Positions 55,410 through 59,913 of a stretch of DNA of 64,000 nucleotides are shown here, in pieces. The notes beneath the pieces were generated by a model. It had not been told where the DNA came from. It worked only from the letters and a program-made list of their open reading frames with translations, and ran no database searches. The DNA lies in contig CAZMSC010000004.1 in assembly GCA_964568845.1 (NCBI GenBank), forward strand, positions 55 to 64,054, given 5' to 3'. A program made the position numbers and the translations under genes. Source of the stretch: an uncultured Candidatus Bathyarchaeia archaeon (lineage in GTDB: Archaea > Thermoproteota > CALKCG01 > B24). Within the stretch, counting starts at the first letter, position 1. Each line of letters starts with the position of its first letter.

Positions 55410-56102
55410 TTGAATTTTAAAATCAGATTGCTACTGATACTGTTAATCGTAGTGATTTTAGGGTTAGGAATTAGAATCGCATATAGAGATGTTGAAAAAT
55501 TTATAATTTATGGTTCTCCAGCGTACAAGGGATTCGGCATCTTTATCCTATGTTTTATAGGAAGTGCATCTCCAATCATTCCAATACCTTATACAGCCGT
55601 AATCCTAATTTTAGCTGCATCCGTACCAGGTCTCAACTTAGTCGAAATAGCGATATGGGGAGGCTTAGGATCAGGATTGGGACAGACTACAAGCTGGATT
55701 GTGGGCAAGTATATAGGTAAAGGTGTCAGATCGCCTAAGTACGAGAAACGGCTTAAAATTTTAGCAACTCTAACTCAGAGGTATGGTCTGATCATTTCCT
55801 TCGCAATATTTGTATTTGCACTTACACCTTTACCAGACAGCATCCTATTCATAATACTGGGTACTATAAACTACAACCTAATATACGTATTGGTGCCAGC
55901 CATACTGGGTAAGATCGCCATGATTTACATAATCGGTCTATTCGGTAGAATCGTAGGTGAAAGGCTACCTTTCTGGTTCTCCTTCCTCTTAACAATACTT
56001 CTCACCATCATGTTTATAGCTATCGTTGAATTCGTAGACTGGGAGAGACTGGCTAAAAAATACTTTAAGACTCTCTTCTTTAAAGAAAATGGGAAAGATT
56101 AG
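55410..56102 (+). CDS. polytopic membrane protein (possibly DedA/VTT-like)
   Basis: Five to six hydrophobic helices and an SPIIPIPYTAVIL motif. TTG start. Confidence 0.45.
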   Translation: MNFKIRLLLILLIVVILGLGIRIAYRDVEKFIIYGSPAYKGFGIFILCFIGSASPIIPIPYTAVILILAASVPGLNLVEIAIWGGLGSGLGQTTSWIVGKYIGKGVRSPKYEKRLKILATLTQRYGLIISFAIFVFALTPLPDSILFIILGTINYNLIYVLVPAILGKIAMIYIIGLFGRIVGERLPFWFSFLLTILLTIMFIAIVEFVDWERLAKKYFKTLFFKENGKD

Positions 56103-56296
56103 AGCGGTTCCGGAAATCGAATATTTGCCATTTTTCCCAGGGATGCCCTTATTCTATTCGTATGGGTAAGTTTCCATATTCCCATATGATTCTAGTGACG
56201 CATCTGGATTTCAAAGGTTGGATCCTCTAGGGGCTTAGTAGAAGCTTTACAGTTCTCCTTTTTCACCTTGAGGAGATAACTGATTGTTTATTGATG

Positions 56297-56318
56297 AAAA
56301 TGTAGACAAAATGTAGAC
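56297..56318. repeat. perfect tandem duplication of the 11-mer AAAATGTAGAC
   Basis: 56297-56307 is identical to 56308-56318. An inverted 9-nt copy GTCTACATT lies at 56375-56383. Confidence 0.9.
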
Positions 56319-56606
56319 ATATAGTATAGTGGGGGAAGAGTAGTTAAGTAACGGCAGTTAAACCAGCGGTTAAAGTCTACATTCGACTTCAGAGATCCAT
56401 AGATGAAGACTGAAGAGATAAAGGCTTTAGACCCAGATATGTAGCTTGAAGAAGAAGTTCTAAAAGCCCTGAAAGAACTCCCACTCTTAGTTGAATCAGG
56501 GGGGAGATTCCAATGCGTGGCATAAGACTGGGGGATTTACAATGGGGTTATGGAATAAGCCGAAGATATTTCATGGAAGATTTATGGAAAAAATCCATAG
56601 AGATAT

Positions 56607-56640
56607 CATGGAAAAACCTAGGGGAGGGGGTCTAAACGAC
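56607..56640 (+). repeat. direct repeat copy A (CATGGAAAAACCTAGGGGAGGGGGTCTAAACGAC)
   Basis: Shares GAAAAAC..CCTAGG..AGGGGGTCTAAACG with copy B, 275 bp downstream. Confidence 0.85.
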
Positions 56641-56881
56641 CAAGATCTACGTTAAAATCCTGTTTCCGGTCGAGTTTGAACGTGAGCGCGAGGAGCTCTA
56701 CAGGGTGTTGAAGGACGCTTTAAAGCGTGCTGAACGTATAGCTAACGATGAGAGAGTTAAGGTAAAGACAAGGCTTGAAGCCTTCAGGCTTGTAGGATAC
56801 ATAGCAAGCATAATTGCAGGCATTTTGAAAGACTTCCAGCTCGACGAGATCGAACGCGAGCTTACGGAGCTGGAGGAAGAT

Positions 56882-56914
56882 GTGAAAAACACCTAGGAGG
56901 GGGTCTAAACGTCC
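56882..56914 (+). repeat. direct repeat copy B (GTGAAAAACACCTAGGAGGGGGTCTAAACGTCC)
   Basis: See copy A. The 14-nt core AGGGGGTCTAAACG is identical, and the flanks differ by two 2-nt indels and one substitution. Confidence 0.85.
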
Positions 56915-57015
56915 ATAGTGAAATCCATACAAACATTCATAGAGGCTGGATTCAAATACGTAACCGCCTTCAACGGAATAATGCTATTCAGAAAACGCAG
57001 GTGATAACGTTTTGC

Positions 57016-57125
57016 GGGGGAGTTTAATGTTTCAGACTATACTTTAACATTGAGTGCATAGGTTTTGTAAACGCTACAGCGTACATCTAAACCCATGTTA
57101 CGCATTCTACGTTCAAAACTCCCCC
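57016..57125. repeat. 10-bp perfect inverted repeat GGGGGAGTTT / AAACTCCCCC separated by 90 nt
   Basis: 57016-57025 and 57116-57125 are exact reverse complements. Confidence 0.85.
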
Positions 57126-57318
57126 TAGATAGATGGTTTAAATATATGAGCCAAGGTATTCTATCGGCAACGTCCCCTTTCAAAGTTAAGTAACCCTTTC
57201 AGCCACATCCATACGCGACCAAATAGCATCATAGAGAACGGCGTTTAAGAATTTTTAACATTGTAAACGACTGACGTAACGCTTTTAAGTATACGTGTGA
57301 AATCTATTTCAGTAGACT

Positions 57319-58368
57319 TTGGGAATAGACCTAGGAGAACTCATAGTTAAAACTCCTTTAACCTTTGAACAGCTTTCAGGTAAATCTATAGCCATAGACG
57401 CATATAACGCACTATATCAATTTCTCGCCATAATAAGAGGCCCTAGCGGTGAGCCCCTTAAGGATAGAACTGGCAGAATCACCAGCCATCTAAGTGGGCT
57501 ACTCTATAGAAGCTGTGCATTAATGTCTTACGGCATCAGGCTCGTATATGTTTTCGATGGGAGGCCTCCGGTGGAGAAGGAAGTCGAGATTAAACGTAGA
57601 ATGAAGATTAAGGAGGAGGCTATTGTAAAATATGAGGAGGCATTAAAAGTAGGAGACTTTGAAGCAGCTAGAAAATACGCTCAAGCTACGGCAACACTTA
57701 AAGATGATATGGTTGAAGATGCTAAAAGACTCTTATCCTACTTAGGTATTCCTTGGATTCAAGCACCTTCAGAAGGTGAGGCACAAGCATCATACATGGC
57801 TTCTAAGGGTCACGTATGGGCAGTAGCTTCACAAGATCATGATTGTCTACTGTTTGGAGCCCCTAGACTCGTTAGAAACCTCGCGGTAACTGGTAGGAGG
57901 AAGCTCCCCGGTCGGAAACTCTACGTTGAATTGCAGCCTGAACTTATCGAGCTCGAAAAAGTCCTTAAGGCAAATGCAATAACTAGGGAGCAACTTATAG
58001 ATATAGCTATTCTGATAGGTACAGACTATAATCCAGAGGGTATCAAAGGTATAGGTCCTAAGAAAGGTTTAAAACTCATAAAAGAGTATGGAAATTTAAA
58101 AGCCCTGCTAGATGAACACGTCATAGATTCTTTAAGTTTCCTAGTAGACCCAGAAACCATAAAGAAGAAATTTTTAAACCCTGACGTTACAACGGATTAC
58201 GAGCTCATATGGGAAGAGCCTAAGGTTTCAGATGTTATAAAGTTTCTATGCTATGAAAGAGATTTCTCTGAAAGTAGAGTTAAGAATGCATTAGACCAGG
58301 CAATTAAAGCTTTCAGGGAGAAGTATAGGCAGAGACGCCTATTCAATCTTAGCGTTTTCACGTTTTGA
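57319..58368 (+). CDS. fen: flap endonuclease 1
   Basis: MGIDLGELI, IDAYNALYQFL, VYVFDG, APSEGEAQ, SQDHDCLLFG and GTDYNPEGIKGIGPKK (H3TH). TTG start. Confidence 0.9.
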   Translation: MGIDLGELIVKTPLTFEQLSGKSIAIDAYNALYQFLAIIRGPSGEPLKDRTGRITSHLSGLLYRSCALMSYGIRLVYVFDGRPPVEKEVEIKRRMKIKEEAIVKYEEALKVGDFEAARKYAQATATLKDDMVEDAKRLLSYLGIPWIQAPSEGEAQASYMASKGHVWAVASQDHDCLLFGAPRLVRNLAVTGRRKLPGRKLYVELQPELIELEKVLKANAITREQLIDIAILIGTDYNPEGIKGIGPKKGLKLIKEYGNLKALLDEHVIDSLSFLVDPETIKKKFLNPDVTTDYELIWEEPKVSDVIKFLCYERDFSESRVKNALDQAIKAFREKYRQRRLFNLSVFTF

Positions 58369-58505: not shown

Positions 58506-58601
58506 ATGAGTAGTGAGAAATATAAATGTGAAATATGCAATAAAGAATTTCCAAGTAAGAAAAGCCTTGCCGCTCATAAGAGAGTACACAAGAAAAAGTA
58601 A
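58506..58601 (+). CDS. 31-aa classical C2H2 zinc-finger protein (not in the ORF track)
   Basis: ATG..TAA encodes MSSEKYKCEICNKEFPSKKSLAAHKRVHKKK. It matches Y-x-C-x2-C-x3-F-x5-L-x2-H-x3-H exactly. GGGGAGAG lies 4 nt upstream of the ATG and TTTTAAAAA lies about 35 nt upstream. Confidence 0.6.
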   Translation: MSSEKYKCEICNKEFPSKKSLAAHKRVHKKK

Positions 58602-58734
58602 ACTCTAAATCTCTCCCATCTTAAACCCCATTTTTATTGCATAACCTATATTTTTAAAACACCGAGACCCCCTCAAAACATTTTTATCTATGTAAAATAT
58701 TTTATAATTATAAAATATTTAACGAGGGGAAAGA

Positions 58735-59913
58735 TTGACTGAAGTAAGAACTTTAATACTTGGAGCAGGCTACGTAGCTACCATATTTACTGTTGGTCTT
58801 GAAAGGTTGAAAAGGGGCGAGATCAAACCATATGGAGTACCGTTAGCCGACTTCGACATAGGTATAGGTATTGATGATGTTAAGGTTGTGGCATGCGTCG
58901 ATGTTGATGCTAGAAAAGTCGGAAAAACGATGTATGATATCGCAAAGAGATTCTACAAGCTTAAGAGCGTACCACTTACGCTTAAAGATGTAGTCGTTCA
59001 TCCTGGAATAGAAATGGGATTTGTTAGAGAACTCTTCCCGATAGATTCACTAGATTATGAGGGAGATTTTCAGCGTTCCGTTGAAGAAATGTACGCTTTT
59101 ATTGAGAGAACTAAGCCAGATGTGATAGTAGATGTTACGACAACCCAGTACGCTAAACCGTTTAATGAGTATAGGTGCTTGGAGAAGGCAGTAGAGGAGA
59201 GAAAGGTTACTCCAACACAGCTCTACGCATATTTAGCGCTAAGACTTATGGAGGAGGGTAGACAGCTCTCCTATGTGAATTTGATACCAACTCCCATAGC
59301 AAACGATTATGCGTATGTTTCAACAGCTGGAAAGTTTGGAGGACTTATACTAGGTGACGATGGTGCAACAGGTGCAACACCTTTTACGGCAGATATGTTA
59401 GAACATCTTAGAGAGAGAAATAGGAAAGTGCTTGGCGTAGTTCAACTAAACATAGGGGGGAACAGTGACTTTAAATCCCTTCTTGATGAAAAAAGGAATA
59501 GAGCTAAAGAGTATACGAAAAATAGTATAGTTGAGGATGTACTCGGCTACTATACGCCCAGCTATATTAAGCCTACGGGTTTCCTCAGCTCTCTCGGCGA
59601 TAAAAAGTTCGTCTCAATACATGTAGAGTATATTTCGTTCAACGGCGTTAAAGACGAGATCATAGTCAATATGCGTATGAACGATAGCCCAGCGTTAGCC
59701 GGATATATGGTCGACTTGACGAGGCTTGCTAAATCGGCTTTAAACGCTGGCTTTTATGGAACAGTATACGATATAAACGCTTTCTATATGAAAAAACCGG
59801 GGCCTCCAAATTCAAAAAACATAGCTCGAATACTTGCATTTGAGAGGTTGAAATCATTCGTCAAAACAATAGTTGATAGGAATCGATTAAACATTCAACA
59901 GAGTATGTATTGA
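58735..59913 (+). CDS. ino1: myo-inositol-1-phosphate synthase (archaeal/bacterial short type)
   Basis: ILGAGYVAT Rossmann start, LGDDGATGATP and LNIGGNSDF. TTG start. Confidence 0.75.
   Translation: MTEVRTLILGAGYVATIFTVGLERLKRGEIKPYGVPLADFDIGIGIDDVKVVACVDVDARKVGKTMYDIAKRFYKLKSVPLTLKDVVVHPGIEMGFVRELFPIDSLDYEGDFQRSVEEMYAFIERTKPDVIVDVTTTQYAKPFNEYRCLEKAVEERKVTPTQLYAYLALRLMEEGRQLSYVNLIPTPIANDYAYVSTAGKFGGLILGDDGATGATPFTADMLEHLRERNRKVLGVVQLNIGGNSDFKSLLDEKRNRAKEYTKNSIVEDVLGYYTPSYIKPTGFLSSLGDKKFVSIHVEYISFNGVKDEIIVNMRMNDSPALAGYMVDLTRLAKSALNAGFYGTVYDINAFYMKKPGPPNSKNIARILAFERLKSFVKTIVDRNRLNIQQSMY

Follow-up and report, generated by a model that had tools for sequence, protein, structure and literature searches.

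The stretch from position 56103 to position 57318 of a 64,000-nt window (the whole piece of DNA analysed here, from a hot-spring Bathyarchaeia archaeon) is very probably a pseudogenised host gene of the URO-D family that carries the eroded stump of an integrated plasmid-like element. It lies between the gene for a VTT-domain membrane protein (55410-56102) and fen1 (57319-58368). A first-pass annotation had singled it out as the largest gene-poor stretch of the window, packed with G5+/C5 tracts, and had proposed for it either a secondary replication origin or element-derived replication/partition site, or the decayed remains of an integrated virus or plasmid. Its size is as described: with 1216 nt it is the largest gap in the window between open reading frames (ORFs) of at least 90 aa, followed by gaps of 496, 494, 366, 357, 343 and 292 nt. 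The second proposal is the one that the locus bears out, since 830 bp of collinear PrimPol/tyrosine-integrase debris sits inside the disrupted URO-D-family gene.

A URO-D-family gene with element debris in its interior

The FEN1 protein of the window is 87-89% identical to that of two Bathyarchaeia metagenome-assembled genomes and ~60% identical to that of many others, and an identical 7-kb stretch also occurs on an ENA contig of 204 kb. Among the relatives with flanking sequence the closest is L001 (FEN1 87% identical), where the same interval is one intact minus-strand gene (L001 4821-5900) that encodes a 359-aa protein of the URO-D family (PF01208, E 2e-18). Only the two ends of this gene are left in the window. 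A tblastn search with the L001 protein recovered 17 codons of the C-terminus (residues 343-359) at 56152-56202 on the minus strand; the DNA at 56150-56198 matches L001 4822-4870 at 82%, and the left breakpoint lies at ~56199-56203. On the other side, ~65 codons of the N-terminus remain at 57030-57223, again on the minus strand (residues 12-71, 68% identity, E 2e-23), with residues 12-71 aligning to 57192-57019 and the first residues in another frame. Homology to L001 resumes at about 57029-57034, which marks the right junction, and the DNA from 57029 to 58344 matches L001 5698-7026 at 81%. The N-terminal remnant has lost its start codon (ATG to ATT) and has acquired a 1-nt deletion, a 6-nt deletion and a stop. 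With homology at both ends and these disabling lesions, the URO-D-family gene is pseudogenised. About 827 bp (~270 codons) of its interior is gone, and 830 bp of unrelated sequence (~56199-57028), absent from all 80 FEN1-linked loci, stands in its place. L001 and the window thus present an empty and an occupied site, the gene being uninterrupted in the former and holding foreign DNA between its ends in the latter.

We compared this locus with a sister haplotype, represented by three JGI contigs (L098-L100) that are 95-97% identical to the window. We also considered whether the nearly equal size of the insert (830 bp) and the lost segment (827 bp) is meaningful, and rejected the idea: L098 carries an insert of ~1.5 kb at the same junctions, and the near-equality is therefore a coincidence.

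The identity of the insert became apparent from its order of fragments on the plus strand, which is collinear with four free elements (L082, L083, L089 and L094). Leftmost are ~200 bp (56203-56404) that hold an 11-mer, AAAATGTAGAC, twice in tandem (56297-56318), its inverted copy GTCTACATT (56376-56384) and the first of the G5 tracts (56331), as the first-pass annotation had recorded. There follow 25 codons of a PrimPol replicase with an internal stop (56405-56480; residues 610-634 of ~845; tblastn 56-64% identity, E 0.007-0.02; blastn 77% to L083 2494-2549). The next fragment, at 56512-56655, consists of the C-terminal 40 codons of a gene for a 164-aa protein and an 8-codon run-on (tblastn 60%, E 6e-12, with ...FHGKRMEKIHREVMEKPRGGG of L083, residues 125-164); the alignment of these last 40 residues spans 56512-56631. 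Downstream lies a complete 86-codon frame (56636-56896), which we term p87 after its 87-aa counterpart in the elements (E 7e-36). Degenerate 12-nt repeats of the TCCATA type (56904-56940) then run into the deletion junction of an integrase gene, at the same place where L083, L089 and L090 have three TCCATA[GC]A units with a period of 12. In the window the last unit merges into the integrase's C-terminal codons (TTCATAGAGGCT, read from the sequence as FIEA). The annotation had seen no integrase here, yet the last ~24-29 codons of one are present together with their TGA stop (56918-57003; tblastn with the L081 integrase, residues 440-463, 46%; blastn 74% between 56939-57032 and L094 2481-2579), the other ~440 codons being deleted. 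The remaining sequence up to the right junction (57004-57030, ~27 nt), which includes the sixth tract, aligns with L094 downstream of the integrase stop. With ~24-29 integrase codons and 25 PrimPol codons, neither an intact integrase nor an intact replicase is kept, and the insert is a remnant rather than an active element. No match to the 830 bp was found in phage and plasmid collections by blastn in its distant mode.

Erosion of the insert can be followed in steps. The sister contigs share with the window both junctions, the left 200 bp (nearly identical in L098) and the truncations of PrimPol and the integrase. The window haplotype alone has a further deletion of 689 bp, with its junction at 56503-56507: window 55497-56503 corresponds to L098 1-1009, and 56507-57597 to L098 1699-2794. 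Since the sister strain keeps these 689 bp, erosion is further advanced in the window strain. Encoded in this extra sequence are the C-terminus of PrimPol (its last ~100 codons) and the 164-aa gene as a fully open ORF of 172 codons. This ORF (L098 1329-1847) begins with ATG and has its stop replaced by the 8-codon run-on, and a second element gene may therefore still be intact in L098. The URO-D remnant differs by 9% between the haplotypes, indels included. As a separate observation, 19 of the ~45 substitutions between window 56507-57597 and L098-L100 pair a window G with a variant A, so that transitions are strongly biased in one direction.

The comparisons show the following course of events. 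An ancestor carried on its minus strand, between the VTT-domain gene and fen1, the 359-aa URO-D-family gene that is still intact in L001. About 827 bp of the URO-D interior has since been replaced by plus-strand element sequence, from which successive internal deletions have taken nearly the whole of the PrimPol and integrase genes. We infer that the element entered at this non-tRNA site by integration or by illegitimate recombination. Across the integrase deletion, a TCCATA-type 12-nt unit is now fused to the similar CTCATAGAGG of the integrase C-terminus; the ends of this deletion thus appear to lie at short similarities (TCCATAGA-type unit and CTCATAGAGG), which suggests a microhomology-mediated loss. 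The p87 frame, in contrast to its surroundings, would still be expressed, being useful to the host or self-preserving, because it accumulates almost only synonymous changes while the sequence around it decays.

The parent element family and the source of the G-tracts

Contigs that carry homologues of p87 share a common gene order: a small RHH-like gene (DUF7557; PF24434/VapB-like), a PrimPol/PriCT_1 replicase (~845 aa), a zinc-finger-like Cys/His protein (164 aa), p87 (87 aa), only sometimes a Cas4-like nuclease, and a tyrosine integrase (467 aa; PF00589, E 1e-23). The N-terminal PrimPol domain is 35-37% identical to the replicases of pRN-type plasmids of Sulfolobus and Saccharolobus and of a Thermococcus plasmid. 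A tRNA-Gln(CTG) gene begins 37 nt downstream of the integrase stop in L089 and in L090. An integrase beside a tRNA gene is the usual layout of integrative elements that target tRNAs. The free elements have the integrase and PrimPol, and no structural genes were seen on their contigs of 4-8 kb. We could not match this combination of PrimPol, zinc-finger protein, p87, optional Cas4 and integrase to any described element.

Two of the intact elements, L083 and L084 (69-73% nucleotide identity to the remnant), were sampled together with the remnant-bearing L098 and L099 (JGI 3300042903 and 3300043569), and live relatives of the dead element thus circulate in the same communities. In another contig (L081 3856-4732), the 467-aa integrase is followed by a sequence resembling a tRNA T-arm, which ARAGORN did not call, and then by a 246-aa integrase-like gene (PF00589, E 7e-6); this second gene may reflect tandem or nested integration.

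In the free elements a second copy of the 164-aa gene's 3' end follows p87, which is thereby flanked by a direct repeat of ~30-45 bp. Where the integrase follows p87 directly (L083, L089 and L090), three tandem 12-nt units, TCCATA[GC]AAAAN, are also present. The sites concerned are 3956-4029 in L083, 10270-10324 in L089, 2538-2592 in L090 and 56884-56940 in the window. They could be a cis-acting site of the element, either an origin or a regulatory site.

The direct repeat pair of the first-pass annotation has the same source. Described as 33 nt long, it measures 32 nt (56611-56642 and 56884-56915, both on the plus strand), with 81% ungapped identity and a spacing of 273 nt. The first copy (A) comprises the end of the 164-aa gene, a GGAGGGGGT tract and the p87 start site, and nine element loci have this sequence ahead of p87, with ATG, TTG or GTG after it where the window has ACG. 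The second copy (B) comprises the p87 stop (TAG), GGAGGGGGT and the fifth tract, and is conserved downstream of p87 in L083, L087, L094 and L095. On the strength of these alignments, the 32-nt repeat was inherited from the element family, in which each of the free copies examined has it on either side of p87.

The seven G5+/C5 tracts themselves lie at the coordinates that had been claimed, against 1.54 expected in 1216 nt from the density of the whole window (81 tracts in 64 kb). Though this is the top count of any 1216-nt sliding window (Poisson p ~1e-3 per window), the enrichment is only modest once ~50 windows are allowed for. The similarity claimed for their 3' flanks is limited to two pairs: the tracts at 56626 and 56899, which belong to the 32-nt repeat, and those at 57016 and 57121, which form a 10-nt inverted pair. 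The tracts are not one motif family, and occur in diverse coding and junction contexts. The first lies in the ~200 bp that match nothing, and the second (56499, a G6) abuts the junction of the 689-bp deletion. The third and fourth (56530 and 56626) are Gly codons of the 164-aa protein (...TGGF... and ...PRGGG), and the fourth and fifth (56899) fall in a sequence conserved at gene junctions, AAAC(A)CCTAGG(G)GAGGGGGT. The start codons of p87 and of the next gene come after this sequence in free elements, and for that reason we regard it as a ribosome-binding-like site. The sixth (57016) is just past the integrase stop, and the seventh (57121, C5) encodes Arg and Gly of ...SRGSFE... in the URO-D remnant. 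The four ATGGAA copies (56550, 56573, 56584 and 56608), which were found as described, are likewise in the 164-aa frame, where they read W-N, H-G, M-E and M-E and match ...FHGKRMEKIHREVMEKPRGGG of the free elements.

In L098-L100, tracts three to six read AAGAG, GGTGG, GGGAG and AGGGG, and the seventh is shortened to C4 in two of these contigs. Of the seven tracts, five are thus broken in the sister haplotype and are therefore unconstrained. Taken together, the G5 tracts, like the 32-nt repeat and the ATGGAA copies, go back to coding and junction sequence of the element, apart from one stretch (SRGSFE) that belongs to the URO-D gene.

Two attempts to extend these assignments were abandoned. 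A role of the G5 tracts as general ribosome-binding sites of the genome was dropped, as a crude test placed just 3 of 81 at most 25 nt ahead of a long ORF's first start, and the ribosome-binding claim is kept only for the element's own gene junctions. The 11-mer tandem was searched for in viral contigs with the pattern TGTAGACAN{3,5}TGTAGACA, which gave more than 120 unrelated matches; the flanking 200 bp matched none of them beyond the pattern.

The open frame p87

Gene debris in several frames was noted correctly by the first-pass annotation, and the stretch has no ORF of at least 90 aa. Its statement that no intact ORF is present fails for p87, whose open 86-codon frame holds a 63-codon, GTG-started ORF (56705-56896) that is called as a gene in public assemblies. 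There is no ATG, GTG or TTG in the frame before the GTG at 56705, and the predicted product from there is 63 aa. Databases hold 15 p87 homologues of 63-91 aa, with 66-78% identity and E-values down to 1e-32.

Between the window and L098, p87 has 10 differences, nine of them synonymous. The lone non-synonymous change swaps GTG and ATG at codon 24, which is the predicted start of the 63-aa product. The flanking remnants have synonymous to non-synonymous counts of 2:5 in the 164-aa C-terminus and 2:5 in the integrase C-terminus (4:10 together). At least nine synonymous changes in ten have P = 4e-4 under a neutral transitions-only model, and the comparison with the flanking debris gives a Fisher P of 0.004. 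The three differences upstream of codon 24 are all synonymous (P ~0.04 alone). Moreover, the frame is open over 86 codons in both haplotypes, while neighbouring frames have stops. This pattern of substitution argues that p87 is probably under purifying selection, that the stretch is not strictly gene-free, and that p87 is probably still functional.

The alternative is that the whole stretch is dead, p87 included, and that the synonymous excess is a sampling accident or the mark of a very recent inactivation. It is favoured by the start codon, which is ATG, TTG or GTG in all free elements and ACG in both the window and L098, by the plain decay of everything around p87, and by the availability of two haplotypes only. 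Set against the synonymous excess and its contrast with the adjacent remnants, a sole non-synonymous change that exchanges one start codon for another at the predicted internal start, and a frame open throughout in both haplotypes amid neighbours with stops, we consider a dead p87 unlikely, though a serious contender.

What p87 might do was approached by way of its structure and its relatives. An AlphaFold2 model is a helical hairpin (pLDDT 80), for which a Foldseek search of the PDB gave a best E of 0.37 and no fold match; no recognisable terminase or DNA-binding fold is present. Pfam and PHROGs searches of the small ORFs of the region, p87 included, gave no family and did not reproduce the weak DUF8136 (PF26457) tag that had been precomputed for the 63-aa product, and tblastn of p87 against phages found no match.

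Homologues of 33-60% identity do occur in three head-tailed archaeal viral contigs, directly upstream of or overlapping the TerL and portal genes (L096 5327-5593, L085 2-130 and L086 3633-3830). Because these homologues adjoin viral TerL and portal genes, a p87-type protein is common to PrimPol-integrase elements and a viral packaging module. Mimicry of a packaging site was considered and rejected, the viral contigs being without the TCCATAGA motif. A bolder suggestion, which we hold to be distinctly improbable, is that the free elements are satellite-like parasites of p87-carrying head-tailed viruses, and that the host has kept p87 since it still acts, for example by interfering with the packaging or replication of related viruses or elements. 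As part of this suggestion, p87 might be translated from the near-cognate ACG behind the strong GGAGGGGGT ribosome-binding site.

Rival readings, neighbouring sequence and known systems

Several points count against an eroded element with one selected gene. The PrimPol match is weak alone (E ~0.01) and gains weight only from collinearity and from L098. For 56203-56404 an element origin is only assumed, as this segment matches nothing among host relatives, element loci or phage and plasmid collections. No att-type direct repeat is common to both junctions and the window has no tRNA, so that site-specific integration cannot be shown. The absence of a tRNA target had been noted before, and ARAGORN run on the whole window agrees; likewise, the tRNA-Gln region of L089 has no att repeat and no similarity to the URO-D target site above chance. 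Such a lack is expected if a junction was lost with the 827-bp target deletion. As for p87, its first 23 codons lack a canonical start, which is odd for a selected gene, and the signal of selection comes from one pairwise comparison of strains with 10 substitutions.

Could the locus serve replication instead? A secondary chromosomal origin, or a cluster of origin recognition boxes (ORBs) bound by Orc1/Cdc6 and captured from an extrachromosomal element, would agree with the element-derived nature of the DNA and with the ...ATGGAAAAAC...GGGGG... of copies A and B, which loosely resembles a dyad with a G-string; captured-element origins are documented in Sulfolobus and haloarchaea (PMC4010727). 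Archaeal origins, however, typically have several conserved ORBs, inverted about an unwinding region, and an orc1/cdc6 or whiP gene beside them. The copies here are direct rather than inverted, only two in number, 273 bp apart and placed around a coding ORF; copy A is the coding 3' end of the 164-aa gene and copy B the next gene junction. The p87 ORF between them has a GC content of 0.45-0.47 against a window mean of 0.41, so that there is no AT-rich unwinding region (across 56100-57300 the values are 0.39-0.47 against the mean of 0.414). GC skew, proposed as a check and run here on the window, changes sign with gene orientation and does so at several places. The element's replicase is down to 25 codons, the site is an intact gene in L001, and the G-strings of both copies are mutated in L098-L100, as are five of the seven tracts overall. 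The first-pass annotation was right that no orc1/cdc6 is visible: among ORFs of 150 aa or more, the 64 kb contain a Walker-A motif in just two, one for a GPN-loop-type ATP_bind_1 protein and the other for MobB, neither Orc1/Cdc6-like, although WhiP-like proteins were not specifically searched. An origin or partition site, its other proposal, is therefore hardly credible, and the sequence does not support the notion that anything here works as a chromosomal replication origin.

A variant of this idea, in which the junction repeats and the TCCATA iterons are a still-usable cis site served in trans by a co-resident element or virus, fares little better. In its favour, free elements conserve both the repeat pair and the 12-nt iterons beside their replicase operon, the intact L083 and L084 occur in the samples of remnant-bearing hosts, and p87 homologues adjoin terminase genes in viruses. 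Yet the repeats in the window are degenerate, the sister haplotype has mutations in their G-tracts at the neutral rate, and the viral contigs have no TCCATAGA motif near their p87 gene; we rate this variant as very unlikely. The perfect 10-nt inverted repeat with a 90-nt spacer (57016-57025 and 57116-57125) could form the stem of a structured non-coding RNA. About one such pair is expected by chance in 1.6 kb (a rough estimate), the two arms belong to different sequences (element DNA and the URO-D coding remnant), and both are altered in L098 without compensation. Rfam gave no family match at gathering score over the whole window, and only noise (TUG1, mir-103, enod40) at E ≤10 over 55900-57500. 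The probability of an RNA gene thus comes close to negligible. A pseudogenised URO-D-family gene with an element stump remains the reading that we adopt.

Of the surrounding sequence, the following was recorded in passing. The 366-nt gap after fen1 has a 31-aa ORF on the plus strand (58506-58601, MSSEKYKCEICNKEFPSKKSLAAHKRVHKKK) that resembles one C2H2 zinc finger and may encode a zinc-finger micro-protein not yet annotated. A near-perfect palindrome of 32 nt (58692-58723, 94% self-complementary) lies just upstream of an inositol-1-phosphate synthase-family gene (58735-59913). Two further ORF-free gaps of ~495 nt each, at 335-830 and 2436-2929, are the next largest in the window.

These results remove a false origin candidate, its conspicuous G-tract cluster being the inherited coding and junction sequence of a decayed mobile element. 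With two haplotypes at different stages, the locus also offers a clean, datable case of stepwise erosion of a plasmid-like element in Bathyarchaeia. In addition, it points to a family of elements so far undescribed, which combines PrimPol, a zinc-finger protein, p87, an optional Cas4 and an integrase and integrates beside tRNA-Gln. The sole item with wider potential is p87, as it is found in elements and beside viral terminases and is apparently selected in a dead remnant.

Among known systems, the closest are the cryptic integrated elements (CIEs) that, together with their inactivated remnants, have been catalogued for Thaumarchaeota (Krupovic et al. 2019, PMC6563490). CIEs are plasmid-like, with no structural virus genes, and encode a PrimPol replicase (with PriCT-1) and a tyrosine integrase; they target mostly tRNA genes but also protein-coding genes, and some copies without recognisable att sites are regarded as inactivated (PMC6563490). 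Our locus resembles them in its PrimPol/PriCT-1 and tyrosine integrase, its protein-coding target and its lack of recognisable att sites. It differs in its Bathyarchaeia host, in being a stump of 830 bp out of more than 5 kb, in an insertion mid-gene rather than at the 3' end with ~827 bp of the target lost, and in a gene set (164-aa zinc-finger protein, p87, optional Cas4) unmatched to described elements. The locus is thus a heavily eroded member of the CIE type in Bathyarchaeia.

Likeness to pRN-type plasmids (pIT3, NC_005907; pORA1, NC_006906) and to the small Thermococcus plasmid is confined to the PrimPol N-domain (35-37%) and the upstream RHH-like gene; only the first ~160 of ~845 residues align, the free elements carry an integrase, and the window copy is without a replicase. 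With archaeal oriC/ORB regions, Sulfolobus oriC3 among them (PMC4010727), the locus shares element-derived chromosomal DNA and short repeats that end in a G-run, whereas an AT-rich unwinding element, inverted ORBs, an adjacent initiator gene and conservation in relatives are all missing, and the repeats are coding or junction sequence.

Defective prophages can retain single selected genes. The locus is like them in that p87 stays open and gains synonymous changes while the rest erodes, and unlike them in that p87 has no canonical full-length start and the parent element is plasmid-like rather than a virus. Finally, the free elements may be compared with virus satellites of the phage-inducible chromosomal island (PICI)-like kind, which would have an integrase, a replicase of their own, a packaging-related gene in common with a helper virus, and no capsid genes. 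On contigs of 4-8 kb, from which no complete element was recovered, the free elements have an integrase and PrimPol and no structural genes were seen; p87 has homologues beside TerL and portal genes in three viral contigs, but no recognisable terminase or DNA-binding fold.

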